From Delftia acidovorans NBRC 14950 (lineage in GTDB: Bacteria; Pseudomonadota; Gammaproteobacteria; Burkholderiales; Burkholderiaceae_C), in contig NZ_BCZP01000020.1 of NCBI RefSeq assembly GCF_001598795.1, forward strand, positions 1 through 32,000: 32,000 nucleotides of DNA. The letters run 5' to 3'. Under the pieces are notes generated by a model that saw nothing but the letters and a program-made list of their open reading frames with translations, was not told the origin of the DNA and did no database searches. A program made the translations under genes and the position numbers. Positions 3,853 to 31,156 of the stretch are shown in pieces. Position 1 is the stretch's first letter. Every line of letters starts with the position of its first letter.

Positions 3853-3870
3853 CATAAACCAGGAGACAAG

Positions 3871-4839: not shown

Positions 4840-4882
4840 TGCCTGCCCCTGTCCTTTTTCCAACCACCGCACTCCCGCAGCC

Positions 4883-6077: not shown

Positions 6078-6393
6078 GTACTGCAGAGAAATGGCGCCAT
6101 CAGTCACTGGAGTAGGCCCAGACTCAATGGGACCTACTTTCATTCCAGCGGCCATTCGAGATAGATGTAATTACCTGAAACAAAAAAGAAAAGGTCGGAC
6201 AGAAGATTGTTACGATGCTTGCCGCCAGACAACGATCCGCCCAAATTGGGGATTGCAAACCTGCACGCCAGCCTGCCGATCAAGGGAAAAATGCGAGTGG
6301 TAAGCCCCCGTCCCGATTGCAGCCAGCCCGGACACTCTCCATCACTTTGCGGTATCGACATGAAGATTGGCGTATAGCAACGAAAGGCGAATT

Positions 6394-7369: not shown

Positions 7370-8712
<1,343 letters not shown>

Positions 8713-8716
<4 letters not shown>

Positions 8717-10593
8717 GGTGTGTCGGCAGAGGGTGTGGAGGGTGCCAGGGCCAGGCTCAGCGTGAAGACGGCGCCGCCGCCCGGATGGTTGCTGCCCGTC
8801 AGCGTGCCGCCGCATTCACGCACGATGCCGGCCGACAGCGCCAGCCCCAGGCCCAGGCCCACGCCCTCTTCCTTGGTGGTGAAGAACGGCTGGAACAGAT
8901 GGGCCTGCGCCGCTTCGCTCAGGCCCGGGCCGTGGTCGCGCACGGTGACCTGGGCGCGGCCATCGGCCACGGCGCAGGCCAGCTCCAGGCAGGGCGCGGG
9001 CTGGCCGCGCATGGCGTCCAGGGAGTTGTTGATAAGGTTGATCAGCACCTGCTCGATGCGGTTGCGGTCGCACCAAGCCACGGCCTCGGGCACGCCGTCA
9101 TCGCGCAGGATGCGGGCGCCGGTCTCGGCCACGCGCGACTCCAGCACGGCCAGCGCATTGTCCAGCGCATGCGCCAGCGGCACGGCCTGGCTGGCGCCGC
9201 TGGACTTGCGCGCGAAGTTGCGCAGCTGGCCGGTGATGCGGCCCATGCGGTCGGCCAGCTGCGCCATGCGCTCCAGGTTCACGCGCGTGGTTTCGGTATC
9301 GCCGCGCTCCAGAAAGCGTTGGCTGTTGCCGGCCAAGGTGCGCAGCGCCGTCAGCGGCTGATTGAGTTCATGGGCCACGCCCGTGGACAGCTGGCCTATC
9401 ACGGCCAGCTTGCCGGCCTGCACCAGTTCGTCCTGGGCGGCGCGCAGCGTGGCCTCGGCGTGGGTGCGCTCGGCCACTTCGGCCTGCAGCGCCTCGTTGG
9501 CGGCCGACAGGTCGGCCGTGCGCTGCTCCACTTTGCGCTCGAGCTCATCGTGCGCGGCCTGCAGCGCCTCGCGCGCGGCCAGCCGGTCGCGCAGGTGGCG
9601 GCGGCGCTCGTTGACCATCATGGCCAGCAGCAGCACAAAGGCCGCACCCACGGCCGCGGCCAGCGCGCGGCTCTGGGCCAGCTGGTCGACCTGCTCCAGG
9701 TGCGAGAGCACGGTGATCGTCCAGGGCGTGCCAGGCAGCTGGCGCGACTGGGCCAGGAAGCGGCCGCTGACCGGGTAGACCGAGCCCGGCGATTCCTCGC
9801 CATGGCGGGCAATGCGCACCAGGCGCGCGCCCTGGCCCAGGTCGCGCAGCACTTGCAGGCCCAGGGGCTCCAGCGCGCGGCGGTTGTACTGGCGCGTGTG
9901 GTCGAAGGCGGCGCGCGTGCCCTCGTCCAGCGTGCGCAAGGTGGTGAATTTCCAGTCGGAGACCGTGCCCAGGATGACGACGCCGTTCTCGTCGCCCACC
10001 AGCACGGGCGCCTCCACCGTGGACCACGATTGCTCCAGCTGGTCCAGGCTGACCTTGACCACGGCCACGCCCAGCGTGTGGGTGTCGTCGCCCAGGGTGG
10101 AGGCCAGGTAGTAGCCGGGCTCGCCGCGCGTGGTACCAATGCCGAAGAAGCGCGCGCTGCCCGTGGCCATGGCGGTGCGGTAGTAGGGGCGAAAGCTCAG
10201 GTCCTCGCCCATGTAGCTGTCGGTGCGCCGCCAGTTGCTGGAGGCCACGACGTGGCCGCGCGCATCGACCAGGTAGGCGGTCAGCGTGCCCGCACGGTCG
10301 TTGAGCTGCTCCAGGTAGGCGTTGACGCGGTTGGTGAGCTGCTCGTCGCCGGGCTCGGCCAGCAGCCTTTGCACATTGCCTTCCAGTGCCAGCACGTCGG
10401 GCAGGAAGGCGTATTTGCCGATCTCGCGCTGCAGGCTGGCGCCGTACAGCTCCAGCCGGTGCATGCCCGTGGCACGCAGATCGGCGATGCCCAGCCGCTG
10501 CGCCAGCAGGTACGCACCCCAGCCGCTCAGCCCGCTCAGGGCAAGCCACAGCAAAAGCAGGATGAGCTGGCGCAGGGGGCGGCGGGCGGGCAT
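8713..10593 (-). CDS. dctB: C4-dicarboxylate sensor histidine kinase, DctB-like
   Basis: 626 aa from ATG 10593. It has an N-terminal TM segment, a DctB-like periplasmic sensor (YAFLPDVLA...ASSNW...FRPYY...FFGIGTT), an H-box (HELNQPL) and an ATPase domain. The track ORF start at 10779 is rejected as an upstream extension. Confidence 0.85.
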
Positions 10594-10639
10594 GGTGAAG
10601 GCACCGATGTTATCAGTGCCCCCCAGCGCCGCCTGGGCC

Positions 10640-11947
10640 TCAGGCCGAGACAGCGGGCCGCCCTTGCTCGGAATGGTCCGTGGGCAGCAGGGACTCGTCG
10701 TCATCCGTGGCCGCGGTCGGATCGACGGCGCCTTCCCACTTGGCCACCACGGCCGTGGCAATGGCATTGCCCAGCACATTGGTCAGCGTGCGGCCCATGT
10801 CCAGGAAGTGGTCGATGCCCAGGATCAGCAGGATGCCCGCCTCGGGCAGGCCGAACATGGGCAGCACGGCGGCCACCACCACCAGCGAGGCGCGCGGCAC
10901 GCCGGCAATGCCCTTGCTGGACACCATCAGCACCAGCAGCATGGTGATCTGGGCCGTCAGCGTCATGTCGATGCCGTAGGCCTGGGCGATGAAGATGGCC
11001 AGGAAGGTGGTGTAGACCATCGAGCCGTCCAGGTTGAACGAGTAGCCCAGCGGCAGCACGAAGCCGATGATGCGCGGCTTGATGCCGAACTTCTCCAGCT
11101 GCTCCATCAGCTTGGGATAGGTCGATTCGCTGCTGGCCGTGGAAAAGCCCACCAGCAGCGGGCCGCGGATCAGGTTCAGCAGGCGGAAGATGTCACGGCC
11201 CAGCACGCAGTAGCCGGCCACGATCAGCAGCACCCACAGCGTGGCCAGGGCCAGGTAGAAGCACAGCATGAACTTGCCGAACACCGACAGCATGCCCAGC
11301 CCATGGATGGTGATGGTGCCGGCCACGGCGCCGAACACGCCCACGGGGGCGAAGCGCATCACGTAGTCGGTGACCTTGAGCATGATGTGGACCACTTCGT
11401 CCATCAGGCCCACCATGGAGCGCGCGGCCTGGTTGTGCAGGTTGCCCAGCGCAATGCCGAAGAACAGCGCGAACACAAGGATCTGCAGCACCTCGTTGGT
11501 CGCCATGGCCTCGAAGATGTTCTTGGGGAACACGTGGGCGATGAAGTCCTTGAGGTTCAGCGCCGAGGTCTTGAGGTTCAGGCCCTCGGCCGACGACGGC
11601 AGGGCCACGCTCAGGCCATGGCCGGGCTGCAGCACGTTCGCATAGATCAGGCCGATGGCCAGCGAGCAGAACGAGGCCACGATGAACCAGCCCAGCGCGC
11701 GGCCGCCGATGCGGCCCACGGCCTTGGCGTCGCCCATGTTGGCCAGGCCCGACACCAGGGTGGCGAACACCAGGGGCGCAATGATCATCTTGATCATGCG
11801 CAGGAAGACATCGGTGAGGATGCCGAAGTAGCTGGCGACTTCCTTGGCGGCCTCGGGCGTGGGTGCGTAGCTGTTGCAGGCATAGCCCACCAGCACGCCG
11901 AGGACCATGGCCACAAGCACCATGGTGGTCAAGCGGTTGAATTTCAT
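10640..11947 (-). CDS. dctA: Dicarboxylate/amino acid:cation symporter (DAACS), DctA-like C4-dicarboxylate transporter
   Basis: 435 aa from ATG 11947 (MKFNRLTTMVLVAMVLGVLVGY...). Multi-TM protein with DAACS motifs (SSSEST-like ASSESTYP, and FLDMGRT). Lies immediately upstream of dctBD. Confidence 0.9.
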   Translation of the reverse strand: MKFNRLTTMVLVAMVLGVLVGYACNSYAPTPEAAKEVASYFGILTDVFLRMIKMIIAPLVFATLVSGLANMGDAKAVGRIGGRALGWFIVASFCSLAIGLIYANVLQPGHGLSVALPSSAEGLNLKTSALNLKDFIAHVFPKNIFEAMATNEVLQILVFALFFGIALGNLHNQAARSMVGLMDEVVHIMLKVTDYVMRFAPVGVFGAVAGTITIHGLGMLSVFGKFMLCFYLALATLWVLLIVAGYCVLGRDIFRLLNLIRGPLLVGFSTASSESTYPKLMEQLEKFGIKPRIIGFVLPLGYSFNLDGSMVYTTFLAIFIAQAYGIDMTLTAQITMLLVLMVSSKGIAGVPRASLVVVAAVLPMFGLPEAGILLILGIDHFLDMGRTLTNVLGNAIATAVVAKWEGAVDPTAATDDDESLLPTDHSEQGRPAVSA

Positions 11948-12088
11948 GCGGATTTTTTCGTTGGACGTATTTCGGTCTTGCAAGCGAGCCCGCCCACCAC
12001 GGCTGCCGGCACGGGCCGGATGCCACAGCGAAGACGGGCTTGTCTCCCTGCATACACAACCACGATGCACGTGGCCTGCGCCTGACAG

Positions 12089-12104
12089 TGCACAGACCGT
12101 GCCA
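12089..12104 (-). promoter_or_regulatory. Sigma-54 (-24/-12) promoter for dctA
   Basis: The minus strand reads TGGCAC-GGTCT-GTGCA, against the consensus TGGCAC-N5-TTGCA (one mismatch). It lies about 140 bp upstream of the dctA ATG, and the cognate sigma-54 activator DctD is encoded in the same cluster. Confidence 0.6.
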
Positions 12105-12188
12105 GCCACATCCGGCACCTGCACCCCGCGCTAACTGCTTGATTCGCCTATATCGACCTTACTTTTATGCATAAGGTGGCACGGAAAT

Positions 12189-14751: not shown

Positions 14752-15765
14752 ATGACCGGACGTTTTGTCCCCTTCAGATCAATGACGCCACTTTCTGACC
14801 CCCTGCCTTTGGCGCCTGGCCCCGGGCTGCCCATCTCGGCCGTCGAACGCGAGACCGGACTTGCCAAGGACACCCTGCGTGTCTGGGAAAGACGCTACGG
14901 CTTTCCAAGGCCTGAACGGGATTCGGCAGGCGATCGCCGCTACCCGGCGGACCAGGTTCGACAACTGACCCTGATCCGGCGGCTCATGGATACGGGACTG
15001 CGCCCCAGCAAGCTGATGGGCGTGGATCTGGACGGCCTGCAGGCGCTGCTGGCCCGCGCCGACACCTCGCCGAGCGTGGATTTGTCCAGGACAAATTCAG
15101 AGAATGCAGCAGACTCTGACCGCTTCGCACCCATGCTCGACGCCATTGCCGCACATGATCCCGCCCAGCTCAGGCATTGCCTTAGCCTGGCCCAGTCGCG
15201 CATGGGCCTGGCCGGTTTCGTGACCACGCTCGTGGCCCCGCTGACCGCAGCGGTCGGCGAATTCTGGGCACAGGGGCGTTTTGAGGTGTTCGAAGAGCAC
15301 CTGTACACCGAGGTGCTCACCGGCGTCTTGAGGCAGGCAATCGCCTCGCTCGCCCCCCCTTCCCCGCCGTCCACGCCCAAGGTGTTGCTGACCACGCTGC
15401 CGCAGGAGATGCATGGGCTGGGACTGCTCATGGTCGAAGCCCTGCTGGCCCTGGAAGGCTGCAACTGCGTATCGCTGGGCACCCAGACGCCCATCGGCGA
15501 CGTGGCACAGGCCGCGCGGGCGCATCGCGCCGACATCGTGGGGCTGAGCTTCAGCAGCTCGCACAACGGAGCGATGGCGCAGGCTTGCCTGGGCGAGCTG
15601 CGCAGCCACCTGCCGCCGTCCATCGAGTTGTGGGCCGGTGGAGCTTGCCCGGCGCTTTATTCCAGCCCGGTCGCGGGCATGACGCCGGTGCGCCATCTCA
15701 CGGATCTGCAACCGCTGGTCGCCCGATGGCGGCAGACGACAAGAACATCAAGGACATACGCATGA
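14752..15765 (+). CDS. MerR-family transcriptional regulator with a C-terminal cobalamin-binding domain (CarH/LitR-type light-responsive regulator)
   Basis: It has an N-terminal MerR HTH (ISAVERETGLAKDTLRVWERRYGFPRPERDSAGDRRY). The helical bundle carries W-x9-EH (WAQGRFEVFEEH). The B12-binding Rossmann region carries ExHxxG (QEMHGLG), followed by GLSFSS and WAGG. An alternative start is ATG 14782. Confidence 0.85.
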   Translation: MTGRFVPFRSMTPLSDPLPLAPGPGLPISAVERETGLAKDTLRVWERRYGFPRPERDSAGDRRYPADQVRQLTLIRRLMDTGLRPSKLMGVDLDGLQALLARADTSPSVDLSRTNSENAADSDRFAPMLDAIAAHDPAQLRHCLSLAQSRMGLAGFVTTLVAPLTAAVGEFWAQGRFEVFEEHLYTEVLTGVLRQAIASLAPPSPPSTPKVLLTTLPQEMHGLGLLMVEALLALEGCNCVSLGTQTPIGDVAQAARAHRADIVGLSFSSSHNGAMAQACLGELRSHLPPSIELWAGGACPALYSSPVAGMTPVRHLTDLQPLVARWRQTTRTSRTYA

Positions 15766-20336: not shown

Positions 20337-21245
20337 CTAACTCCCCTGCTCCTGGCCAGCGGCACCGAATGCGGGAATCCTGGAGAACACGTCGCCCATG
20401 AAGTCCATGAACGCGATGGCCCGTGTGGGAAGCAAGCGGTTTGCGACGTAGACGATCTGAACAGGCACATGCGGGGCGGTATGTTCCAGCAGGATGCGCT
20501 GCAAGGCCCCGCTTTTCAGCCCCCCCTCGAACAACCACGCGGGGCCGTGTCCAACCCCCAAACCGGCGATGACCGCTTCGCGAACCGCGTCGGGCGAGTT
20601 GACCCTCAACCGGCCTGAAACCGGAACTTCGGCGTCACGGAAGCGCCATGTCGCACCGGACGACAACAAGGTGTAGACCACGCAGTCGTGGTCACGCAGT
20701 TCATCGGGCGTCTGTGGCTCTCCGCGTTTGGCCAGATAGTCCTTGCTGGCAACGAACACCCGCTCGTACGAGCCGACGCGCCGAGCTCGCAGCGCACTGT
20801 CTTCAAGATGTCCAATGCGAATGGCAAGTTCAGTCCCCTCGTTGACGAGGTCCACGTAGCGATCGCTGATTTGCAGGTCCAGGGCCAGCCTCGGGTAGCG
20901 CTCCAGAAACGCGGGGACGTGGGGCATCACGAAGGTGTGTGCCAGTGAGGTGGGACAGGCCACGCGCAAGAGCCCTGAAGGATCGACGCTGTCCCGGAAC
21001 GAGGATTCCGATTCGTCCACGGCATCCAGGATGCGCCGCGCGTCGGCGTAGTAGCGCTCACCCTCCGGCGTCAGGGAGAGCTTGCGTGTGGACCGGTGCA
21101 GCAGCCGTGTCTGCAGGTGCTCTTCCAGCGCCGCCACGTAGCGGCTCACGTTGGGTTGTCCCAGGCCCAGGTCGCGCCCCGCAGCAGAGAAGCTGCCTGT
21201 CTCCACGGCGCGGGCAAAGCAGGTCATCCAGAGCAGTCGGTCCAT
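20337..21245 (-). CDS. LysR-family transcriptional regulator
   Basis: 302 aa from ATG 21245 (MDRLLWMTCFARAVETGSFSAAGRDLGLGQPNVSRYVAALEEHL), followed by a LysR substrate-binding domain. Confidence 0.9.
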   Translation of the reverse strand: MDRLLWMTCFARAVETGSFSAAGRDLGLGQPNVSRYVAALEEHLQTRLLHRSTRKLSLTPEGERYYADARRILDAVDESESSFRDSVDPSGLLRVACPTSLAHTFVMPHVPAFLERYPRLALDLQISDRYVDLVNEGTELAIRIGHLEDSALRARRVGSYERVFVASKDYLAKRGEPQTPDELRDHDCVVYTLLSSGATWRFRDAEVPVSGRLRVNSPDAVREAVIAGLGVGHGPAWLFEGGLKSGALQRILLEHTAPHVPVQIVYVANRLLPTRAIAFMDFMGDVFSRIPAFGAAGQEQGS

Positions 21246-21260
21246 GTTTTTCCTTTTATT

Positions 21261-21277
21261 CATGCCAATTTTGCATG
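21261..21277. promoter_or_regulatory. LysR-type T-N11-A dyad (CATGC-CAATTTT-GCATG) in the divergent LysR/SDR intergenic region
   Basis: TGCCAATTTTGCA fits T-N11-A with TGC/GCA arms. It lies in an AT-rich divergent promoter region. Confidence 0.4.
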
Positions 21278-21372
21278 AAATATATTGAAAAACCATATCT
21301 TATGTATTCCAAGACATGAATGCACATTACTCCCAGGCGGCCGCGGTTGGTCGTCACCCCAAGGAGAATTTC

Positions 21373-22125
21373 ATGTCACGCCTGCAAGGCAAACGCACCC
21401 TCATCACCGGCGGCACCAGCGGCATCGGCCTGGAGACCGCCAGGCAGTTTCTGGCTGAAGGTGCCCGTGTCATCGTGACCGGAGTCAATCCCGATTCGAT
21501 CGCCAAGGCCCAGGCCGAACTCGGCCCAGAGGTCCCGGTGCTGCGCGCAGACTCGGCCAGCGTCGCCGCACAGAAAGAACTGGCTCAAGCCGTAAAGGAC
21601 CGCTTTGGCCAGCTGGACGTCGCCTTCCTCAACGCCGGTGTGTCGGTCTGGCGTCCCATCGAGGAATGGACGGAAGAGATGTTCGACCGCCTGTTCGATG
21701 TCAATGTCAAGGGGCCGTACTTCCTGCTTCAGTCCCTGCTGCCGGTGTTCGCGAATCCCGCTTCCGTGGTGCTGACCACGTCCATCAGCGCCCATGCCGG
21801 TGCGGATCGCTCGTCCGTCTACGCCGCCACCAAGGCAGCGTTCCTGAACATGTCCAAGACGCTGTCAACCGAACTGCTCGGGCGTGGCATCCGTATCAAC
21901 GCGGTCAGTCCCGGCCCCGTCGAGACACCGCTGTACGACAAGCTGGGCATCCCCGGCGCCTACCGCGAGCAGATCAACAAGGACATCGTGGCAACCATCC
22001 CGCTCGGCCGCTTCGGCACCTCCGAGGAGGTGGCCAAGGCTGTGCTGTACCTGGCGTCCGACGAATCCCGCTGGACGGTGGGCTCTGAAATCGTGCTCGA
22101 TGGCGGCCGCCTGCTCAACCGCTGA
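21373..22125 (+). CDS. SDR-family oxidoreductase (classical short-chain dehydrogenase)
   Basis: 250 aa. AAGGAG RBS at 21361-21366. It has TGGTSGIG cofactor motif, NAGV, and the YAATK catalytic Y-x3-K. Confidence 0.9.
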   Translation: MSRLQGKRTLITGGTSGIGLETARQFLAEGARVIVTGVNPDSIAKAQAELGPEVPVLRADSASVAAQKELAQAVKDRFGQLDVAFLNAGVSVWRPIEEWTEEMFDRLFDVNVKGPYFLLQSLLPVFANPASVVLTTSISAHAGADRSSVYAATKAAFLNMSKTLSTELLGRGIRINAVSPGPVETPLYDKLGIPGAYREQINKDIVATIPLGRFGTSEEVAKAVLYLASDESRWTVGSEIVLDGGRLLNR

Positions 22126-22188
22126 GGACGCAGCGTGTGCGGTGTGTCACCGCCTGTGGCTACCGCACCCCCACTTCGAAAGAGCTTC

Positions 22189-22863
22189 ATGATCGAGCCC
22201 CGCCTCACCCTCGTCAGCCATCCGCTATGCCCCTTTGTCCAGCGAGCGGCGATCGTCCTGCTGGAAAAGGGCGTTCCCTTTGACAGGATCACCATCGATC
22301 TGGCCGCCAAGCCCGACTGGTTCCTGGACATGTCGCCGAACGGCAAGGTCCCGCTGCTGCGCGTGCGCCAGCAAGACGGAACGCAAGCCGTGATCTTCGA
22401 GAGCATGGTGATCTGCGAGTACCTCGAAGAGTCGCAGGGCGGCGCACCGATGTATCCACGCGACGCACTGGCGCGTGCCCGCCAGCGGGGCTGGATCGAG
22501 TTCGGCACCGCGACACTTGCGCACGCCTGGCAGTTCCTCAACGCCATCGACCGCGCGGCTGCAGATGCCAAGCAGGCAGCGTTCCGGCACCGCCTCCAGC
22601 AACTGGAAGCGGAGCTCGGGTCGGGGCCCTATTTCGACGGCACCGCGTTTGGCATGGTGGACGCCGTCTTCGCTCCTGTTTTTCGCTACTTCGACAGCCT
22701 GGATCCAGCGGTGTCGCACGCCATCTTCGAGAACCTGCCTCGCGTGTCGGCATGGCGCAACGCACTCGCGCTGCGACGCAGCGTCATCGATTCCGTGGGA
22801 AGCGACTATGCGCAGCGGTTCAGGCAGCACCTGCGTGAGCACGCCGCGCTGCTCGCCGGCTGA
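22189..22863 (+). CDS. Glutathione S-transferase family protein (Cys-type active site, CPF motif)
   Basis: 224 aa. It has an N-terminal thioredoxin-like fold with SHPLCPFVQR and a VPLL...ESMVICEYL motif, followed by a helical GST C-terminal domain. Confidence 0.8.
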   Translation: MIEPRLTLVSHPLCPFVQRAAIVLLEKGVPFDRITIDLAAKPDWFLDMSPNGKVPLLRVRQQDGTQAVIFESMVICEYLEESQGGAPMYPRDALARARQRGWIEFGTATLAHAWQFLNAIDRAAADAKQAAFRHRLQQLEAELGSGPYFDGTAFGMVDAVFAPVFRYFDSLDPAVSHAIFENLPRVSAWRNALALRRSVIDSVGSDYAQRFRQHLREHAALLAG

Positions 22864-22874: not shown

Positions 22875-23759
22875 TCAGGGCTCCGTGGCCCGCAGTTCGT
22901 CGTGAAGCCAGTCCACCAGCTTCACCACATCGGGGCGGCGGCTGAGGTGGGGCGCGGTCCAGGACACGAGCCGGTTGGGGCCGCGCACAAAGCCCATGGG
23001 CGCCACCAGGGTGCCGCTCATCAAGTCGTCGCGCACCAGCATGCGCGGCACATTGGCCATGCCCAGGCCGCAGCGCGCGCCCTGGATAAGCAGGTAGAAA
23101 TGCTCGAACGACTGGTCCACCCGCAGGTTTTGGTCTGGCTGCGTGCTGCAGCGGGCCCAGTCGGCCCAGGCGTTCGGGCGGGTGCGGGAAACCATGAGCT
23201 GCGCTCGCGCCAGGTCTTCGAAGGAAGCGATGCGGTTCTGTCGCAGGTACTCGGGCGAACACACCGGTCCGATCCACTCGTGCGCGACGTCTGCACGCAC
23301 GGCGTCCCGGGGCGGTTCGATCGACGACAGCCGGATCGCCACACTGACGTTGTCGTGCGCAAAGTCGATCGGCCCGTGGCTCATGTTGAAGCGCAGCTCC
23401 ACCTCGGGGTGAGCTTCCTTGAAGCGACCCAGCCTGGGAATGAGCCAGTACATCATGATCGACTCCGAGCAGGCCAGGGTCAGCGGGCCCGGCTTGAGCT
23501 GCTCGACGCTGGACTGGATCAGTCCGAAACCCTTCGAGAGGCCCTCCGCCAGGCGCTGCCCTTCGCCGGTCGGCATGGCCCCCTGCGCCGTGCGCTGCAA
23601 AAGTGCCAGACCCAGCGTGTCTTCCAGCATCCGGATGTGGCGGCTGACCGCGCCATGCGTGACCGACAGTTCCTCCGCCGCCGCGCTGAAGCTGCGCAGG
23701 CGCGCCGTCGCTTCAAAGGCCCGCAGTGCGTTGAGCGAGAGGCGGTGGGGGGTGGTCAT
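22875..23759 (-). CDS. LysR-family transcriptional regulator (GcvA-like), divergent from the RLP gene
   Basis: 294 aa from ATG 23759 (MTTPHRLSLNALRAFEATARLRSFSAAAEELSVTHGAVSRHIRMLE). Confidence 0.9.
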   Translation of the reverse strand: MTTPHRLSLNALRAFEATARLRSFSAAAEELSVTHGAVSRHIRMLEDTLGLALLQRTAQGAMPTGEGQRLAEGLSKGFGLIQSSVEQLKPGPLTLACSESIMMYWLIPRLGRFKEAHPEVELRFNMSHGPIDFAHDNVSVAIRLSSIEPPRDAVRADVAHEWIGPVCSPEYLRQNRIASFEDLARAQLMVSRTRPNAWADWARCSTQPDQNLRVDQSFEHFYLLIQGARCGLGMANVPRMLVRDDLMSGTLVAPMGFVRGPNRLVSWTAPHLSRRPDVVKLVDWLHDELRATEP

Positions 23760-23797
23760 GGATGCACTTTCCAACTAAGGGTCAACCTGGGTGCCGT

Positions 23798-23812
23798 GTG
23801 AGTTTAAGTCAC
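23798..23812. promoter_or_regulatory. LysR-type T-N11-A dyad (GTGA-GTTTAAG-TCAC) between the LysR and RLP genes
   Basis: TGAGTTTAAGTCA fits T-N11-A. An octamer, TCACAGCC, recurs at 23809-23816 and 23885-23892. Confidence 0.4.
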
Positions 23813-23894
23813 AGCCTACCGAAATCATATCGTTTTACACAAGGAAAGATGGCTCTTATCGTTCAGTCCGGTTTCAAAATTAACTCACAGCCCG

Positions 23895-25169
23895 ATGACC
23901 AAGAACACCACCCGTGCCGAATTCACCGCGCGCTACTTCGTCGAAAGCTCGGTCTCGTCCGAGAAGGTTGCGCAGGTCATCGCCGGCGAACAGTCCAGCG
24001 GCACCTTCCTCTCGTTGCCCGGCGAGACGGACGAGCTCAAGGAACGCTCTCGCGCCCGTGTCACCCGCATCGAGCCGCTCGCCCCTGCGCTTGAGCCCAC
24101 GCTGCCCAGCGCCTATGTGGATCGCCAACCGCACGGCGGGGTGTTCCATCGGGCCGAGATCGAGATCGCGTTCCCGGAGGCCAACGTCGGAGCCAACCTG
24201 TCCAGCCTGCTGGCCACGGTGGCGGGCAACCTGTACGAACTGGGCGAGGTCACCGGTCTGCGCCTGCTGGACCTGGACCTGTCGCCCGGCTACGCCGCCC
24301 AATTCGCCGGCCCGGCCTTTGGGGTGTCCGGCACCCGGCGGATGGCCGGGGTCCACGGCCGGCCGCTGATCGGCACCATCATCAAGCCCAGTATCGGCCT
24401 CACGCCTGGCCAGACTGCCGAACTGGTCGACTCGCTGTGCGCAGCCGGCATCGACTTCATCAAGGACGATGAGCTGATCGCCGATCCACCCTATGCGCCG
24501 TTCGACGAGCGCCTGCGGGCCGTCATGCCGGTGCTGCAGCGCCATGCAGACCGCCTGGGCCGCATGCCGATGTACGCAATCAACATCTCCGGCTCCATCG
24601 ACGAGATGCTGCGCCGCCACGATGCCGTGCTCGCAGCAGGCGGCACCTGCGTGATGGTGAGCGTCAACTGGGTCGGCTTCGCCGGGGTGGAACACCTGCG
24701 CCGCCACGCCCAGTTGCCGATCCACGGCCACCGCAACGGCTGGGGCGCGTTCACACGGCACCAGGGGCTGGGCTTCTCGTTCCAGGCTTACCAGAAGCTG
24801 TGGCGCCTGGCGGGGGTGGACCACCTGCACGTCAATGGCCTGCGCAGCAAGTTCTGGGAGCCGGACGACTCGGTCATCGCCTCGGCCCGCGCCTGCCTGT
24901 CGCCCTGGGCCGGACACCAGCCGCTGATGCCGGTGTTCTCGTCGGGCCAGTGGGCGGGCCAGGCGCCGGACCTGTACGCGGCTCTGGGTTCGGTGGACCT
25001 CATGCACCTGGCCGGCGGCGGCATCATCGGCCACCCCGACGGCATCGCCGCCGGTATGGCCAGCATGCGTGAAGGCTGGGAGGCGGCGGTGGCGAGCATC
25101 GGCCTGGACGCCTACGCCAAAACGCACCCCGCACTCCAGCGGGCAATGGCGCACTTTGCCGGGCGGTGA
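23895..25169 (+). CDS. RuBisCO-like protein (form IV RuBisCO large-subunit homologue)
   Basis: 424 aa. It has RuBisCO large-chain motifs GTIIKPSIGL (equivalent to the KPKLG region), IDFIKDDE (carbamylated Lys plus metal ligands), IHGHRNG (HR pair), HLHVNG, FSSGQW and LAGGGIIGHP. There is no small-subunit or cbb gene nearby. Confidence 0.9.
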   Translation: MTKNTTRAEFTARYFVESSVSSEKVAQVIAGEQSSGTFLSLPGETDELKERSRARVTRIEPLAPALEPTLPSAYVDRQPHGGVFHRAEIEIAFPEANVGANLSSLLATVAGNLYELGEVTGLRLLDLDLSPGYAAQFAGPAFGVSGTRRMAGVHGRPLIGTIIKPSIGLTPGQTAELVDSLCAAGIDFIKDDELIADPPYAPFDERLRAVMPVLQRHADRLGRMPMYAINISGSIDEMLRRHDAVLAAGGTCVMVSVNWVGFAGVEHLRRHAQLPIHGHRNGWGAFTRHQGLGFSFQAYQKLWRLAGVDHLHVNGLRSKFWEPDDSVIASARACLSPWAGHQPLMPVFSSGQWAGQAPDLYAALGSVDLMHLAGGGIIGHPDGIAAGMASMREGWEAAVASIGLDAYAKTHPALQRAMAHFAGR

Positions 25170-25172
25170 ACG

Positions 25173-26579
25173 ATGACTTCGACTGACAAGGCCCAAGGGC
25201 TGAAGCTCGCGTTCTACGGCGACGACTTCACCGGCTCCACCGATGCGCTGGAGGTCCTGGCTTTCGGCGGGCTGCGCTGCGCGCTCTTCCTGTCGGTGCC
25301 GAAGTCGGCGCAGATGGCTGCGTTGGGCGGCTTCGACGCCATCGGCGTGGCCGGCGCGAGCCGGGCGATGACGCCGCAGGAGATGGATGCGCAGCTGCCC
25401 GACGTATTGAGTGGGCTCGCCGCCCTGGCGCCGCAGATCGTGCACTACAAGGTGTGCTCCACCTTCGACAGCGCGCCAGCGGTGGGCAACATCGGCCGGG
25501 TCATCGAACTGTCTCGGGCGGCCTTCCCGCAGCCCGTGGTGCCGATCGTCGCCAGCACGCCGGCACTGGGTCGCTACTGCCTGTTTGGCCACCTGTTTGC
25601 GCGGTCGGGCACCGACGGCGAGGTGTACCGCATCGACCGCCACCCGATCATGAGCGTGCACCCGGTGACGCCGATGCAGGAGTCCGACGTGGCCCGGCAC
25701 CTGGAAAAGCAGGCGCCATTGGCCATCGGCAACGTGCCGCTGACCTGGCTCGACACCCAGTCGCCGGCCGAGCTGGCGCAACACATCCGCGCCATGGCGC
25801 CAGCCCGGCAGGCGGTGGTGATCGACGGCCTGAGCGCCGGCCACCTGACCACCACCGGCGACTGCCTTCAGCAGATGGCTGCGGGGCTAAAAGCGCCCCT
25901 CTTTGTGGTCGGATCGTCCGGTGTCGAGTACGCGTTGACGCAATCCTGGCAGGGAGAAACGGCTGCGTCGGGCGACCGCTACGGCAGCTTCGGCGCCGTC
26001 GACCAGGTGCTGGTCGTCTCGGGCAGCGCCTCGAAGCTCAGTGCGATGCAGATCGAGGCGGCGGTGGACGCCGGCTTCCGCGAGGTGGCGATCGATGTCG
26101 AGGCGCTGGCCATCGGCCCGGACACCGCCGCCGCCGAGGCGCGCCTCGTGAGCGAGGTGGTCAGTGCGCTGGCCAGCGGCGCCAGCGTGGTGATGCACAC
26201 CGCACGCGGCCCGTCCGATCCGCGCGTGGCCCGCTTGACCCAGGGCCTGCAGATGCGGGGCGCCAGCCTGGAGCAGGCGCGCCACCAGAGCGGGCGCCTG
26301 GTCAGTGAACGGCTGGGCATCGCGGTGGACGCCATCGTTCGCCGCCACCGGCTGCGTCGCCTGGTGCTCTCGGGGGGCGACACGTCCAGCCGCATCACAC
26401 AGGCCCTCGGCCCCGACGCCCTGGAGATCCGCGCCCGCCTGTCGCCCGGCGCACCGCTGTGTGCCGTCCTGTCCACACAGTCCCACCTGAGCGGGCTGGA
26501 GCTGGCCCTCAAGGGCGGCCAGATGGGCGCTCCCGACTACTTCGTCCGCGCGCTGCGGGGCAGCGCCGGGGACGCCTGA
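25173..26579 (+). CDS. DUF1537-family four-carbon/acid-sugar kinase (OtnK/OiaK-like)
   Basis: 468 aa. The N-terminal motif LAFYGDDFTGSTDALE is typical of DUF1537 (YgbK-like) kinases, and the C-terminal nucleotide-binding domain has LSGGDTS. It starts 4 nt after the RLP gene's stop. Confidence 0.88.
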   Translation: MTSTDKAQGLKLAFYGDDFTGSTDALEVLAFGGLRCALFLSVPKSAQMAALGGFDAIGVAGASRAMTPQEMDAQLPDVLSGLAALAPQIVHYKVCSTFDSAPAVGNIGRVIELSRAAFPQPVVPIVASTPALGRYCLFGHLFARSGTDGEVYRIDRHPIMSVHPVTPMQESDVARHLEKQAPLAIGNVPLTWLDTQSPAELAQHIRAMAPARQAVVIDGLSAGHLTTTGDCLQQMAAGLKAPLFVVGSSGVEYALTQSWQGETAASGDRYGSFGAVDQVLVVSGSASKLSAMQIEAAVDAGFREVAIDVEALAIGPDTAAAEARLVSEVVSALASGASVVMHTARGPSDPRVARLTQGLQMRGASLEQARHQSGRLVSERLGIAVDAIVRRHRLRRLVLSGGDTSSRITQALGPDALEIRARLSPGAPLCAVLSTQSHLSGLELALKGGQMGAPDYFVRALRGSAGDA

Positions 26580-26619
26580 TGCATTGAACCATTCACACAA
26601 AACCACCAGGAGACCTGTC

Positions 26620-27393
26620 TTGCCATCCACCCACACTCCACACCGCGTCGCGGTCGTCACCGGCGGCGCCATGGGCATCGGCGCCGAAGTCTGCCGGCGT
26701 CTGGCCGCCGCAGGCTTTGCCATCGTCGTCGCCGACCGCGACCAGACGGCCGCCGAGACCACCGCCGCGGACCTGCGCGCCGACGGTGCGACCGCCGAGG
26801 CCCAGGCCATCGACGTTGGCGACGCCGCATCGGTCGACAGCGCCTTCGCCGCCATCGAGCAGCGCCATGGACGCTGTGACGTGCTGGTCAACTCGGCCGG
26901 CATCGCCAAGGTCCATCCCTTCCTGGAGTTTCCGGACGACAACTTCGCGGCCACCATGGCCGTCAACGTCAACGGCACCTTCCTGTGCAGCCAGCGCGCA
27001 GCGCGCCTGATGGTGCGCAACCATTGGGGCCGTATCGTCAACATCGCCTCGGTGGCAGGCATGCGCGCCGTCGGCACCGGGCGGACTGCCTACGGCACCT
27101 CCAAGGGCGCCGTGATCGCGCTGACCCGCCAAATGGCAGTCGAGCTGGCCGAAAAGGGCGTGACGGCCAACGCCGTGGCGCCCGGTCCGGTGGACACACC
27201 GATGACCCGTGTGCTGCACACCGCGCAATTCCGTCGAGAGTACGAGAACGCGATCCCGATGAACCGATACGGCACCGTGGGCGAAATCGCAGCGGCCGTG
27301 ATGTACCTGGTGTCCGAGGACGCGGGGTTCGTGACCGGCGTCACCCTGCCGGTCGATGGCGGCTTCCTCGCCTCTGGCGCCCGGGGCATCTGA
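26620..27393 (+). CDS. SDR-family oxidoreductase (classical, NAD(P)-dependent)
   Basis: It has TGGAMGIG, NSAG, and S...YGTSK (Y-x3-K). The preferred start is TTG 26620, preceded by AGGAGA (26608-26613). The track start is TTG 26584. Confidence 0.85.
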   Translation: MPSTHTPHRVAVVTGGAMGIGAEVCRRLAAAGFAIVVADRDQTAAETTAADLRADGATAEAQAIDVGDAASVDSAFAAIEQRHGRCDVLVNSAGIAKVHPFLEFPDDNFAATMAVNVNGTFLCSQRAARLMVRNHWGRIVNIASVAGMRAVGTGRTAYGTSKGAVIALTRQMAVELAEKGVTANAVAPGPVDTPMTRVLHTAQFRREYENAIPMNRYGTVGEIAAAVMYLVSEDAGFVTGVTLPVDGGFLASGARGI

Positions 27394-27426
27394 ACCATCA
27401 CTTTTTCCACCCTGAGAGGAGACTCC

Positions 27427-28437
27427 ATGAACAAGCGCAACTTCATCGCGGGCGCTGCGCTCGCACTCGCCACCCTGGCCGCCGTTCCGGCCATGGCCCA
27501 GCAGGTCAAGGCCCGAATGGGCCATGTCTTCGCTGCCAACAGCACCATGGACCAGGCAGCGCAGGAATTCGCCAGGCTGGTGGGCGAACGCACCAAGGGC
27601 CGGATCGGCATCATGGTCTTCCCGGCCAACCAACTGGGCGGCGAGCAGGCACAGGCGCGCGAACTGTCGCGCGGCTCGTTGGAGCTGGCACTGCTGAACC
27701 CCGGCTCGCTGGCCGGCCTGAACCCGCTGCTCGACATCCACTACCTGCCCTACATCGCATCCGACTTCAAGCAGGTAGATGCCATCTTCTACAACCCCAA
27801 GGGCGTTCTGCAGACGACGCTGCGCGAGACACTGGCCAAGCAGAACATCGAGACGCTGGGCTTCTTCGAGCTCGAGTTCCGCGCTGTGACCAACTCCAGC
27901 CGTCCGGTGGAGAAGCCGGCTGACCTGAAGGGCCTGAAGCTGCGGGTTCCAGGTTCGGCTGCGATCAAGGGCTTTTTCGAGGAAACCGGCGCCCAGGTGG
28001 TTGTGATGCCGTTCCCCGAGCTGTTCACGGCGCTTCAGCAAAAGACGGTGGACGGCCAGGACAACGGCGCCAGCATCACCTACGAATCGCGCCTGTTCGA
28101 GACACAGAAGTACATGACGCTGACCAACCACGTCTACGCCATGGGTACGGTGGCATCGAGCTCGAAGTTCTGGTCGGCGCTGTCCGAAGCCGAAAAGAAG
28201 ATCCTGACCGACACCGCCGCCGAGGTGACCAGCAAGCAGATCGAAAAGAGCCGCCAGCTCAACGCAGACTTCCTGAAAAAGATCGAGGCCGGTGGAATCA
28301 AGATCGTCCGGCCATCGGCGCAGGCCATGGCCGAGTTCGAGAAGGTGGGCCAGGGCCTGTGGGGAAAGCTGTCGGGCACCTACGGTGCTGAACGCATCGC
28401 TGCTCTGCGCCAAGAGGCTGCGGCTGCTCGCAAATAA
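27427..28437 (+). CDS. TRAP transporter substrate-binding protein (DctP family)
   Basis: 336 aa. It has a signal peptide (AALALATLAAVPAMA) and a DctP-family core with a conserved Arg context (ELEFRAVTN) expected to bind a carboxylate. GAGAGGAG RBS. Confidence 0.9.
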   Translation: MNKRNFIAGAALALATLAAVPAMAQQVKARMGHVFAANSTMDQAAQEFARLVGERTKGRIGIMVFPANQLGGEQAQARELSRGSLELALLNPGSLAGLNPLLDIHYLPYIASDFKQVDAIFYNPKGVLQTTLRETLAKQNIETLGFFELEFRAVTNSSRPVEKPADLKGLKLRVPGSAAIKGFFEETGAQVVVMPFPELFTALQQKTVDGQDNGASITYESRLFETQKYMTLTNHVYAMGTVASSSKFWSALSEAEKKILTDTAAEVTSKQIEKSRQLNADFLKKIEAGGIKIVRPSAQAMAEFEKVGQGLWGKLSGTYGAERIAALRQEAAAARK

Positions 28438-28452
28438 GTGAAGGAGGGGCCC

Positions 28453-28974
28453 ATGTCCGTCAGCAAACGCGCCAGCACGTGGCTGTTTTCGGTGGAACGC
28501 CACGCGTTCCTGGCCGAGAAGTGGATTTGCATCATCTCGCTTGTCGCCATGCTGGTGGGCATCTGCTTCAGCGTGGCGGTGAGGTACTTCAGTCTCCACC
28601 TGCCCGACGCCGGTGAAATCGCCATCTACGCCATGGCGCCACTCACTTTCGTCGGTGCAGCAATGTGTACCTGCACAGGGACGCACATCGCGGTGGACAT
28701 CATCGACCAGGTCAAGCGCCCGTGGGTTCGCCGGACCGGTCGGGTGTTCACGGCGCTCACCATGATCGTCTTCGGCGCAGTCTATTTCTGGACAGCACTG
28801 GGGTTCTTTCAAAGCGCGTTGAGCTCCGGCGAGCGAGGCCTCGACATGGGCATTCCTGTCGCGATTCCCACTTTCTTCTTCCCGCTCGGCATGGCGCTGG
28901 TGGTGCTGCATGCCCTGGCCGAGCTGATCCGTGCCGCAACCAATCAACCATCGGTTGCCAAGGAACACCCATGA
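28453..28974 (+). CDS. TRAP transporter small permease (DctQ family)
   Basis: 173 aa with four hydrophobic segments. ATG 28453 is preceded by AAGGAGG (28441-28447). Confidence 0.85.
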   Translation: MSVSKRASTWLFSVERHAFLAEKWICIISLVAMLVGICFSVAVRYFSLHLPDAGEIAIYAMAPLTFVGAAMCTCTGTHIAVDIIDQVKRPWVRRTGRVFTALTMIVFGAVYFWTALGFFQSALSSGERGLDMGIPVAIPTFFFPLGMALVVLHALAELIRAATNQPSVAKEHP

Positions 28975-30269
28975 TCATCGGTCCCGCTCTCATCTTCATT
29001 CTGTTGTTGGGTGTGCCCGTCGGTGTGGCCTTCACCTTGGTGGTGATGGTCAACGCCGAACGGTGGAACATCGACTGGTCGGTGCTGCCCTCCATCACCT
29101 ATGACACCGTTACCGTTTTTCCGCTTCTGGCGATCCCGCTTTTCCTGCTGGGTGGGCAGCTCATGAGTCATGGGGGGCTGATCCGGCAGCTCACCGCTGT
29201 CTGCGATGCACTGATCGGGCGGCTACAGGCCCACCTGGGCCATGTGATGGTGCTGGCCAGCGCCCTGATGGGCGCCATCACCGGCTCGTCGGTCGCGACT
29301 GTGGCCGCGATAGGTAGCACCGTCGGCAAGGAAATGATCGAACGCGGCTACTCGCCCGGCTACACCGCGGCGCTCAATGCGTCTGCGGGATTGCTCGGCG
29401 TGCTCATCCCTCCGTCGATTCCGTTGATCCTGTACGGCTCCATCGTGGGAGTCTCGATCACCGAGCTGTTCATGGCATCCATCGGGCCCGGGATCGTCAT
29501 GATGCTGGCCTTCATGATCGTGCACGCCTCGCTCGCCCGCCGCGTGCTGCCGGGTGGCAAGGAAAAGCCGGCGGCAGTGCATTCCGGTGAATCCAGCCGT
29601 ACCGGCGCTGCCGCGCCCGTCTCGCGCACCAGCGTGTTCGTGCGTGCCGTGCCCGCGCTCATGCTGCCGGTGCTGGTGCTGGGAGGCATCTACACGGGCA
29701 TCTTCACGCCCACCGAGGCGGCAGCGGTGGCGGCGCTCTACGCGCTGCTGATCACGCTCGTCAGCAGGGCCGTGCGCGTGCGCGACATGGAGAAGATTTT
29801 CCTGAGCGCCGCGCTGTCCGCCGCGGCGATCCTGGTGATCATCGGCTTCACCAGCATCTTCAACCGCGCCATGGTGCTGGAGCAGGTACCGCAGTCGATC
29901 GCGATGTGGGCCACCACGGTGACCGACAGCCCGATCATCTTCCTCCTGGTGGTGAACATCATCCTGCTGGTCGTCGGCATGTTCATGGAAACCAATGCCG
30001 CAACCCTGCTCATGGGCCCCCTGCTGGCGCCGACTGCAGCGAAGTTCGGCATCGATCCGATCCACTTCGCCATCATTTTGGTGACCAACATCGAGCTCGG
30101 GCTGCTCACGCCGCCGCTGGCCGCGAACCTCTATGTGGCGGCACGAACAAACAAGGTACCGATCATCGACCTGCTTCGAAACCTGGGCTGGTTCCTGGTG
30201 GCGTGCCTGGTCGTGATGGCCATGATCACCTACGTTCCGCAGCTGCCCCTTTGGTATCGATTTTTCTAA
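28971..30269 (+). CDS. TRAP transporter large permease (DctM family)
   Basis: 432 aa, polytopic (MIIGPALIFILLLGVPVGVAF...). The ATGA start overlaps the dctQ stop. Confidence 0.9.
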   Translation: MIIGPALIFILLLGVPVGVAFTLVVMVNAERWNIDWSVLPSITYDTVTVFPLLAIPLFLLGGQLMSHGGLIRQLTAVCDALIGRLQAHLGHVMVLASALMGAITGSSVATVAAIGSTVGKEMIERGYSPGYTAALNASAGLLGVLIPPSIPLILYGSIVGVSITELFMASIGPGIVMMLAFMIVHASLARRVLPGGKEKPAAVHSGESSRTGAAAPVSRTSVFVRAVPALMLPVLVLGGIYTGIFTPTEAAAVAALYALLITLVSRAVRVRDMEKIFLSAALSAAAILVIIGFTSIFNRAMVLEQVPQSIAMWATTVTDSPIIFLLVVNIILLVVGMFMETNAATLLMGPLLAPTAAKFGIDPIHFAIILVTNIELGLLTPPLAANLYVAARTNKVPIIDLLRNLGWFLVACLVVMAMITYVPQLPLWYRFF

Positions 30270-31156
30270 GCCGCGATGCCCCGCATCCCCATCAAAACCT
30301 CAATCGTCACCGTCGTCGCGTCGTCATCCGGCCTTTTGCGATGCGCGATGCCCAACGCCCTTGACAGTGCCGGCCGCAGGGGTCGCGTGGTGATGCGTGG
30401 GTCAGGCTGCGGTGCGCCGGCCTCGTGGGGCAGCAGCGCGGCGCCGTAGCCCGCCGCCACCAGGCTCTTCATTGCGTCGTTGTAGTTCAGCTCGATCCGT
30501 GCCTGTGGCCGGGCGCCGCCTGCGGCAAACCATTCGGCGGTCTGGCGTGACAGCCGGGTTCCACGGTCGTTGGCGATCAGCGGACGGGCCGCAAGCCACG
30601 CGGGCGTGATGTGCTGCGGCGGCTTCCAGGCGGCCGGGATGAAGGCCAGCACGGGGTCCTGGCGCCAGGCCTGCACCTGCAGCCCGCGCAGCACGGGCTG
30701 TGGCAAGGCAACGATGCCGATGTCCAGGCTGCCGGCGGCCAGGCGCGCCAGGGCTTCCTCGCTGGTCATCACCGCCACTTGCACGTCGATCTCGGGATGC
30801 CGGGCGGCCAGGGTTTCCAGCGCCTGGGGCAAGAGGTGCGCGAGTGCGCCGGTGGAGGCGCCCAGGCGCACGCGGCCCCCGCGCGTGGCGATCTGGCGCT
30901 GCACGGTCTGCAGGAGATCGTCGGCCTCGGCCAGGAGCTGGCGCGCCTTGTCTATCAGCAGGCTGCCCGCCGATGTGGCGGTGACGCCGGCCGGTGCGCG
31001 GTGCAATAGACGAGTTCCCAGACGCTCTTCGAGCTGCGCCACATGCAGCGTCACCGTGGGCGGCGCCAGGTGCAGCACCTTGGCGGCGGCGGCGAATGAG
31101 CCCAGGTCGGCCACCGTCAGCAGGGTGCGCAGACGGTCCAGATTGATTTCGCGCAT
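30266..31156 (-). CDS. LysR-family transcriptional regulator
   Basis: 296 aa ([47 protein letters not shown]). Its stop overlaps the dctM stop (convergent, 4 nt). It is divergent from argC. Confidence 0.9.

Follow-up and report, generated by a model that had tools for sequence, protein, structure and literature searches.

A 32,000-nt stretch of Delftia acidovorans NBRC 14950 (contig NZ_BCZP01000020.1; hereafter the window) contains, at positions 22,875-31,156, a compact cluster of genes for a RuBisCO-like protein (RLP), a DUF1537 kinase, a classical short-chain dehydrogenase/reductase (SDR) and a tripartite ATP-independent periplasmic (TRAP) transporter, preceded by a divergent LysR regulator. 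Analysis of the cluster and its relatives suggests that it is an operon, activated by LysR, through which a small hydroxy-carboxylic 'acid sugar' other than D-apionate itself is catabolized, an interpretation to which we give an even chance. The cluster appears to be a widespread, conserved variant of the pathway for apiose, a plant cell-wall sugar, and to lie outside every curated family. Among the closest known schemes is the transcarboxylase/hydrolase branch of the oxidative D-apionate pathway in Xanthobacter autotrophicus, which proceeds through ApnO, OiaK and OiaX (Carter et al. 2018, cited in PMC6302742 and PMC12994016). The Delftia acid would be utilized through import by DctPQM; oxidation of its 3-hydroxyl group to a 3-oxo (beta-keto) acid by the SDR, proposed to be an NAD+-dependent acid-sugar 3-dehydrogenase that would do the job of ApnO without moving a branch; phosphorylation of the terminal hydroxymethyl group beside the ketone by the OiaK-like DUF1537 kinase; and processing of the phosphorylated 3-oxo acid by the RLP, proposed to be an enzyme of enediolate-based C-C cleavage or decarboxylation, which, like OiaX, would form an enediolate bound to Mg2+ and proceed either by decarboxylation, re-carboxylation and hydrolysis or by direct hydrolytic cleavage, with 3-phosphoglycerate and a short acid as probable products. 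We infer the order of these steps, the position oxidized, the OiaX-like outcome and the products. An earlier note on this DNA had proposed the same logic of import, oxidation, phosphorylation and RLP chemistry, and the comparative data fit it: the genes are co-conserved, the SDR stands in the position of ApnO, and the SDR Ltn3D offers a precedent. The note had also held that the substrate is not assignable from context, which remains so; candidates are linear tetronates, C2-branched 2-C-methyl- or 2-C-hydroxymethyl-tetronates, and hamamelonate.

The features of the cluster are as follows (coordinates in the window, strand, identification):

22875-23774, minus: LysR regulator (GcvA-like), divergent; HTH_1 and LysR_substrate domains (Pfam)
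23799-23862, plus: control region with T-N11-A box, second element and promoter-like hexamers
23895-25169, plus: RLP, form IV, 424 aa; PF00016 (251 bits) and PF02788 (33 bits)
25173-26579, plus: DUF1537 kinase, 468 aa; PF07005 (174 bits) and PF17042 (113.5 bits)
26620-27393, plus: classical SDR, 257 aa from a probable TTG start (reading frame opens at 26584); adh_short and adh_short_C2
27427-28437, plus: DctP, TRAP solute-binding protein with signal peptide; PF03480 (242 bits)
28453-28974, plus: DctQ, TRAP small membrane subunit (reading frame opens at 28438); PF04290 (81 bits)
28971-30269, plus: DctM, TRAP large permease; PF06808 (330 bits) and TIGR00786 (358 bits, cut-off 268)
30266-31156, minus: second LysR regulator, convergent, at the 3' end (reading frame and Pfam)

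All eight open reading frames (ORFs) lie where the earlier note had placed them and have the expected Pfam domains. The spacing between the RLP and kinase genes, given there as 4 nt, is 3 nt (TGA acg ATG); the ATGA overlap of dctQ with dctM is present at 28971-28974. As read from the sequence, translation of the SDR most likely starts at TTG 26620, with an AGGAGA Shine-Dalgarno sequence just 5', and that of DctQ at ATG 28453, with GAAGGAGG as Shine-Dalgarno sequence 5'. The intergenic gaps along the operon are 3, about 40, 33, 15 and -4 nt, and the stop codons of dctM and the 3' LysR gene overlap. A single promoter-like site lies in the divergent region of the operon, and terminator-like sites within the cluster are not enriched (5 found, 4.8 expected). 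Its recurrence across genera puts the arrangement far beyond chance. Elsewhere in the window, Pfam scans bear out the reported absence of a lactonase, an aldose dehydrogenase, an OtnI-type isomerase, a class II aldolase and a tetrulose-phosphate isomerase; the other ORFs belong to unrelated families only, none of them related to the Calvin cycle, and the window contains no tRNA or Rfam feature.

Clades and active site of the RuBisCO-like protein

Relatives were taken as the 80 best RLP loci in a sample of one genome per species, against which the window proteins were run by tblastn; key counts derive from tblastn, ORFs of the relatives were chosen with weighting for conservation, and denominators vary by gene (e.g. 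41, 40, 30). The searches show a sharp break between two clades: clade II, with RLPs at least 64% identical to that of the window (45 of the 80 loci, in Comamonadaceae, Burkholderiaceae, Oxalobacteraceae, Pseudomonas, Chimaeribacter and a few Alphaproteobacteria), and clade I, with RLPs 52-59% identical to it. Neighbour-joining recovered clade II in 96 of 100 bootstraps, the Xanthobacteraceae OiaX-like group in 99 of 100 and the Rhizobiaceae type in 100 of 100. Sixteen positions separate clade-II from clade-I RLPs, among them 167 (I/V) beside K175, 318 (S/N) beside K334, and 379 (G/A) in the GGG phosphate loop. The window RLP is 100% identical to a D. acidovorans protein, upwards of 120 sequence clusters share at least 79% identity with it, and the clade is common in soil and water Proteobacteria.

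The window RLP has both RuBisCO domains and is a form IV protein, not a bona fide carboxylase: the models of true RuBisCO fail on it (252 bits against a cut-off of 497 for type III; 238 against 438 for PRK04208), and residues that bind ribulose bisphosphate are substituted (K177 by Ser, H298 by Trp, G380 by Ser). Its best curated model is NCBIfam NF042437 (479.9 bits, under the cut-off of 700), and the closest solved structure is PDB 3NWR (457 bits), an RLP of unassigned function. When the catalytic positions of RuBisCO were mapped by motif in spinach numbering, E60, N123, K175, K201, D203, E204, H294, R295, H327, K334 and S379 were found to be kept, and K177 replaced by Ser, in the window RLP, in clade II and in the OiaX-like group alike, whereas the Rhizobiaceae decarboxylase type has E60D, N123G, H327Q and S379G or S379C in three genera. 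This makes the active site one of the OiaX kind and not of the decarboxylase kind. This residue set, exactly that of the OiaX-like clade, weakens the earlier suggestion that the chemistry could be new as far as the RLP step is concerned; the reaction is probably OiaX-like.

By overall sequence, the window RLP lies outside the characterized OiaX clade, with the Xanthobacter sequence itself replaced by proxies in this comparison: it shares 55% identity with the OiaX-named clade and 44-47% with the decarboxylase type. The references were JGI-named OiaX proteins and Xanthobacteraceae loci for the former and PGAP-named Rhizobiaceae proteins for the latter. Two CHARACTERISED RLPs have been assayed, a decarboxylase from Agrobacterium radiobacter K84 and a transcarboxylase/hydrolase from X. 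autotrophicus (PMC6302742). The JGI name '3-oxoisoapionate-4-phosphate transcarboxylase/hydrolase', for the OiaX reaction that yields 3-phosphoglycerate and glycolate from 3-oxo-isoapionate 4-phosphate, is given to proteins about 80% identical to the RLP of Ancylobacter (locus L064) and never to the clade of the window, whose members are named only 'ribulose-bisphosphate carboxylase large chain'. The proteins that PGAP names by NF042437 come from Rhizobium, Sinorhizobium and Agrobacterium and are the ones 44-47% identical to the window RLP; the gene symbol OiaX that NCBI attaches to NF042437 seems inconsistent with JGI usage, which denotes a different clade, and this affects loci L081, L090 and L091. 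None of ten RLPs drawn from all clades passed the NF042437 model (425-536 bits), which therefore has no discriminating value within that sample. The Rhizobium etli locus contains tetrulose-phosphate isomerases and so fits a decarboxylase that produces tetrulose phosphate.

Conserved gene neighbourhood, regulation and transport

In 39 of 41 clade-II loci the kinase gene directly follows the RLP gene, and in 28 of 31 clade-I loci the two are adjacent. Of 40 clade-II loci, 29 have an ortholog of the upstream LysR gene (45-94% identity) that is divergent and directly 5' of the RLP gene; of 34 clade-I loci, none does. An SDR ortholog (at least 60% identity, within 10 kb of the RLP gene) occurs in 17 of 30 clade-II loci and none of 22 in clade I. 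The RLP-kinase pair, the divergent LysR and the SDR ortholog recur together across Comamonadaceae, Burkholderiaceae, Oxalobacteraceae, Pseudomonas and an enterobacterium. Clade-I loci have ApnO (family f7, 351 bits to PDB 5T57), a D-apionate-lactonase-like gene, a Gfo/Idh/MocA dehydrogenase and sugar ATP-binding cassette (ABC) transporters. ApnO, the protein of PDB 5T57, is a Rossmann protein of PF03807, not an SDR, and Pfam finds no gene of this family in the window.

Within clade II, the gene after the kinase is an SDR in most loci, a threonine-dehydrogenase-like Zn-dehydrogenase in two (L009, L011), and in six ApnO together with a 131-aa protein of no known family. The RLPs of the ApnO-linked loci were monophyletic in none of 100 bootstraps. 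Between SDR-linked and ApnO-linked kinases, of which only three of the latter were compared, two conservative positions differ, and mean identity is 53% for the ApnO-linked comparison and 56% among the SDR-linked. The simplest reading of these neighbourhoods is that LysR, RLP and kinase form a conserved core, to which the transporter and dehydrogenase are an exchangeable feeder, and that the core handles one 3-oxo acid or a narrow class of them, made from various imported acids by different dehydrogenases. Such a design would be modular, a fixed regulator-RLP-kinase core accepting SDR, Zn-dehydrogenase or ApnO feeders.

Related arrangements extend beyond the clade. The exchange of SDR for ApnO is also found with a decarboxylase-type RLP on an Agrobacterium plasmid, and a Bradyrhizobium plasmid is similar; the SDRs of these plasmids make up a second group of orthologs, with 41-45% identity to that of the window. 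Both plasmids (Agrobacterium salinitolerans, L090; Bradyrhizobium elkanii, L082) are conjugative and contain extended clusters with a sugar ABC importer, two to three aldo-keto reductases, a lactonase of the metallo-beta-lactamase fold, a BKACE-family gene, the RLP, the kinase and the second type of SDR, which look like complete routes from a neutral sugar. The 131-aa protein accompanies ApnO in loci L026, L028, L030, L031, L039 and L041, does not occur in clade I, matches nothing in Pfam or NCBIfam and often has a BKACE-family gene nearby. In Variovorax sp. PvP013 (L088, 13300-18774), the RLP cluster stands back to back with one that encodes a class II aldolase along with a DUF1537 kinase, a GntR regulator and a lactonase, so that both solutions coexist in a single genome.

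The kinase has the two-domain DUF1537 architecture and reaches the cut-off of no curated kinase equivalog: it scores 376 bits against 700 with the OiaK model (NF042436), 193 against 350 with OtnK (NF043035) and 117 against 450 with DtnK. The RLP and kinase, whose novelty the earlier note had made dependent on this point, are accordingly both outside the annotated apionate families (480 and 376 bits, cut-offs of 700). The SDR has the classical fold, with TGGAMGIG as nucleotide-binding motif, the catalytic Ser and YGTSK in its translation, and matches only generic FabG-like entries in NCBIfam and PDB; the Asp of its VVADRD motif suggests a preference for NAD+. Kinship with Ltn3D of Paracoccus litorisediminis is not close, in that neither 9XAX nor 4DYV, the latter 57% identical to PlLtn3D, is among the 60 best PDB matches of the window SDR, all of which score at least 131 bits. 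Exclusive association of the SDR with RLP clusters was considered and rejected on the evidence of its homologs, given below.

The upstream LysR best matches the GcvA subfamily in NCBIfam (212 bits, under the cut-off of 288) and is the probable activator of the operon. The T-N11-A box described in the earlier note is confirmed as TGAGTTTAAGTCA at 23799-23811, within the dyad TGTGAGTTTAAGTCACA; a second conserved element, GAAATCATATCG, lies at 23821-23832, and its portion ATCATATCG at 23824-23832 makes up a bipartite site with the box. A promoter scan finds a sigma-70-like promoter, TTTACA-17-TATCGT, at 23834-23862, so that a divergent LysR gene and a T-N11-A dyad 5' of the target promoter are in the arrangement of a LysR-regulated divergent operon. 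The exact bipartite pattern occurs once in the window (0 expected) and again 5' of the RLP gene in ten further loci. Among 24 orthologous LysR-RLP intergenic regions, TGAG-N6-TCA is present in 13 (0.46 expected), and ATCATATCG about 25 nt downstream of that site in 18; the box of the ApnO-type locus L031 is identical to that of the window. The description of the module as flanked by two LysR regulators stands for the upstream gene, which is co-conserved, and fails for the one at the 3' end: no ortholog of the latter accompanies the cluster in any of the 80 loci, including the closest relatives (RLPs 93-94% identical), and its sole matches are LysR genes of 27-29% identity a few kb away in L003, L018 and L029. 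The 3' LysR, absent even from the closest relatives, is therefore not part of the module.

Downstream neighbours give hints of the output. An extra, co-directional pyruvate kinase gene comes directly after the end of the cluster in Azohydromonas, Noviherbaspirillum, Thauera, Pseudomonas and Bradyrhizobium, with a fragment of one in the same place in Variovorax (loci L007, L012, L027, L034, L082 and L088); enolase follows the pyruvate kinase in three of the five genera, and a phosphoglycerate-mutase-family gene is present in three other loci (L006, L009, L011). No clade-I locus has a pyruvate kinase, enolase or phosphoglycerate-mutase-family gene in these positions. This linkage points to a phosphoglycerate product.

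The TRAP proteins P, Q and M are encoded together as a complete set, with TIGR00787 and TIGR00786 above their cut-offs. The translation of DctP contains the motif LKLRVP, whose Arg we read as the carboxylate-binding Arg; an Arg selectivity filter in TRAP binding proteins is described in PMC4646407. Orthologs of this DctP accompany the cluster in L001-L003 and L027 (84% identity), and L088 has a DctP gene in the matching position, position alone having been compared. When clustered at 50% identity, the TRAP binding proteins track the type of dehydrogenase and cross the RLP clades: one family belongs to SDR-type loci of clades I and II, another to the window and Hydrogenophaga loci, a third to Zn-dehydrogenase loci of both clades and a fourth to ApnO-type clade-II loci. 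The commonest SDR-type family is 61% identical to PDB 4OAN, the density of which was reportedly modelled as (S)-2-acetolactate, a C2-branched 2-hydroxy-3-oxo acid; 2-acetolactate is one ligand class in that study. For the ApnO-type binding proteins, the nearest structures are 4P47, 7BBR and others of TRAP binding proteins. Two entries, 4PDD and 4P9K, reportedly carry erythronate or pantoate. The group of 4P47/7BBR-type structures is described as bound to 2-keto-3-deoxygluconate, pantoate or erythronate.

Alternative substrates and reactions

Several observations weigh against the proposed pathway. No RLP position consistently splits the SDR-linked from the ApnO-linked members of clade II, and the intermediate could simply be 3-oxo-isoapionate, the RLP and kinase being indistinguishable from those of ApnO-linked loci. 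Two of five SDR homologs with 72-78% identity lie outside RLP clusters, one directly beside CoA-transferase genes and the other within a few kb of them; the SDR family might act elsewhere and need not be exclusive to the RLP pathway. One metagenome-assembled genome has two SDR-type clusters (L019 and L029), which argues for some functional divergence inside the clade. In the Delftia window, Pfam scans find no pyruvate kinase or enolase gene adjoining the cluster. The closest structures to the window DctP are remote (7BBR, 154 bits; 4P47, 148 bits) and provide no close ligand-bound relative; at 28% identity it is not an ortholog of 4OAN, so the ligand hint from that entry applies to the sibling clusters and not directly to Delftia. 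A literature search found no assayed clade-II enzyme, the order and products of the reactions being deduced, and no paper on an acid-sugar pathway of RLP and SDR.

It is doubtful, though worth entertaining, that the core handles a 3-oxo acid phosphate other than 3-oxo-isoapionate 4-phosphate and that the RLP reaction is new to the superfamily; such an intermediate could come from a linear tetronate or from a C2-branched acid, for instance 2-C-methyl-D-erythronate or hamamelonate (2-carboxyarabinitol). If so, cleavage to 3-phosphoglycerate and formate, acetate or glycerate, hydrolytic or transcarboxylating, would be one example and would put the second half of the RuBisCO reaction to catabolic use, fed by a new acid-sugar 3-dehydrogenase. 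Given the OiaX-like residue set and the lack of an RLP position that separates the feeders, the question lies mainly in the substrate of the feeder and the reaction of the SDR. The known D-apionate pathway itself would operate if OiaK and OiaX acted on 3-oxo-isoapionate, DctPQM imported D-apionate and the SDR replaced ApnO or were accessory. We consider this unlikely, even though OiaX and OiaK are the NCBIfam models matched best, the RLP has the same catalytic residues as the OiaX-like clade, six clade-II relatives have ApnO in the slot of the SDR with RLP residues that do not distinguish them, the three comparable kinases differ at two conservative positions only, and the ApnO-type locus L031 shares the T-N11-A box: the window has no gene of the PF03807/5T57 family, the ApnO reaction moves a hydroxymethyl group, which is not expected of a classical SDR, the binding proteins of SDR-type and ApnO-type loci come from different families, the RLP and kinase score far under the curated cut-offs, and JGI reserves the OiaX name for the L064-like clade.

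A three-step tetronate route, in which the SDR would oxidize C3 of L-threonate or D-erythronate and the RLP, after phosphorylation, would replace OtnC, an enzyme of the class II aldolase type, by decarboxylating the product to dihydroxyacetone phosphate, is improbable in our judgement. The experimentally shown Ltn3D-3OtnK-3OtnC route follows the same logic; three enzymes would reach a central metabolite, which fits a minimal conserved set of genes such as SDR, LysR, RLP, kinase and major facilitator superfamily transporter in Pseudomonas; RLP decarboxylases exist; and remote relatives of the TRAP binding proteins were crystallized with erythronate or pantoate. However, the RLP keeps N123, H327, E60 and S379, which are replaced in decarboxylase-type RLPs, the kinase scores 193 bits with OtnK against 376 with OiaK, the SDR is not close to Ltn3D (4DYV is not in its top 60 PDB matches), locus L088 has a separate cluster of DUF1537 kinase and class II aldolase beside its RLP cluster, and dihydroxyacetone phosphate as product would leave the linkage to pyruvate kinase and enolase unexplained. 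Still less probable is catabolism of D-hamamelose or hamamelonate (2-carboxy-D-arabinitol) as in Ochrobactrum anthropi, with the RLP acting last as an oxygenase that yields 3-phosphoglycerate and (phospho)glycolate. The O. anthropi RLP is homologous, stands among hamamelose genes and yields 3-phosphoglycerate; in the sibling loci L082 and L090, genes for aldo-keto reductases, a lactonase and a sugar ABC importer precede those for RLP, kinase and SDR; and the sibling SDR-type binding protein is 61% identical to 4OAN, whose ligand was reportedly modelled as 2-acetolactate, a C2-branched acid. The O. anthropi route reportedly needs a bisphosphate and a decarboxylating dehydrogenase, in contrast to the single kinase and ordinary SDR of the window, the DctP of which, at 28% identity, is not orthologous to 4OAN. 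Finally, the SDR could act on the RLP product or on an unrelated substrate, the transported compound being already a keto acid. The homologs of the SDR, 72-76% identical, that occur near CoA-transferase genes without an RLP, and the CoA-transferase and lyase genes that flank the RLP clusters L016, L019 and L089, are in line with this, yet the SDR holds the position of ApnO and of the Zn-dehydrogenase, its cofactor motif, of the NAD type, speaks for oxidation, no other oxidoreductase is conserved in SDR-type loci, and beta-keto acids, since they lose CO2 spontaneously, make poor nutrients in the environment; we regard this last alternative as very improbable.

Neighbouring genes and comparison with known systems

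Elsewhere in the window, a low-GC islet at 6100-7322 (about 0.49-0.55, against about 0.68 around it) contains a Tae4-family type VI secretion amidase effector (6367-6915; PF14113, 67.7 bits) and an overlapping 140-aa ORF (6900-7322) with a lipoprotein-like N-terminus and no Pfam match, probably an immunity protein; the islet looks like an orphan effector-immunity pair that was horizontally acquired. The genes grouped at 2637-6040, for a LacI regulator, an enolase-superfamily (MR/MLE) enzyme and a TctC-type binding protein, look like a module of their own, in which an acid-sugar dehydratase is supplied by a transporter of the tripartite tricarboxylate type. The minus strand at 7370-12124 encodes a sigma-54 response regulator, a Cache-domain sensor kinase and a DctA-type symporter, a DctA/DctB/DctD-like C4-dicarboxylate system. 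Directly 5' of the RLP cluster, at 20337-22863, lies a trio of a second divergent LysR gene, an SDR (29% identical to the cluster SDR) and a glutathione S-transferase, syntenic only in the closest relative, Hydrogenophaga palleronii (L001), and probably unrelated to the RLP module. The 717-aa ORF at 479-2632 matches arylamine N-acetyltransferase (PF00797) in its last ~230 residues, has no Pfam match in its N-terminal ~480 and may be an over-extended call in GC-rich DNA; at 14752-15765, a MerR-family regulator carries a fused B12-binding domain, the architecture of CarH-like regulators that respond to light or cobalamin.

To our knowledge, only a handful of RLPs have an assigned reaction. Identification of the substrate of the SDR-type clusters would reveal a further route of catabolism, for a sugar acid of plant or microbial origin, would correct the blanket annotation as 'ribulose-bisphosphate carboxylase large chain', which inflates estimates of CO2 fixation in metagenomes, and would show the extent to which the active site of RuBisCO has been reused for breaking rather than making C-C bonds.

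Among known systems, the D-hamamelose RLP of O. anthropi (Kim et al. 2018) is a homologous enzyme that takes the final step in breaking down a branched sugar acid and gives 3-phosphoglycerate, but is reported as an oxygenase. It reportedly acts on a bisphosphate. The structure 3NWR is the closest that has been solved and has the catalytic set of the window RLP except at position 177, but is only 52% identical over the aligned columns and falls outside clade II. It is a structural-genomics entry from Burkholderia fungorum. Since Paraburkholderia fungorum has its own clade-II copy (L016, about 76% identical to the window RLP), 3NWR is a paralog and not the ortholog. In P. litorisediminis, the SDR Ltn3D oxidizes C3 of L-threonate and of C5 and C6 acids ahead of a DUF1537 kinase, and the Ltn3D-3OtnK-3OtnC route shares with the Delftia cluster C3 oxidation by an SDR, a DUF1537 kinase and an enzyme that breaks a C-C bond (PMC12994016). 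Its last enzyme, 3OtnC, is a decarboxylase but not an RLP, the window SDR is not close to Ltn3D, and the window kinase is nearer to the OiaK than to the OtnK model. 3OtnC is reportedly an enzyme of the class II aldolase type.

The decarboxylase branch (A. radiobacter K84 type, NF042437) resembles the Delftia cluster in that an RLP adjoins a DUF1537 kinase in an acid-sugar pathway, and differs in the 44-47% RLP identity, in the replacements E60D, N123G, H327Q and S379G/C and, at the R. etli locus, in its TIM-like and RpiB-like isomerases, ApnO, ABC importer and Gfo/Idh/MocA dehydrogenase, none of which is found in the window. Compared with the OiaX branch, the window RLP is 55% identical and in a separate clade, the kinase is about 40% identical, an SDR stands in for ApnO, and the LysR is GcvA-like with its own operator and the binding protein of another family; the two nevertheless share the order of RLP, DUF1537 kinase and dehydrogenase, often fed by a TRAP transporter (L064, L068), an identical RLP catalytic set, and OiaX and OiaK as the best-matching curated models.

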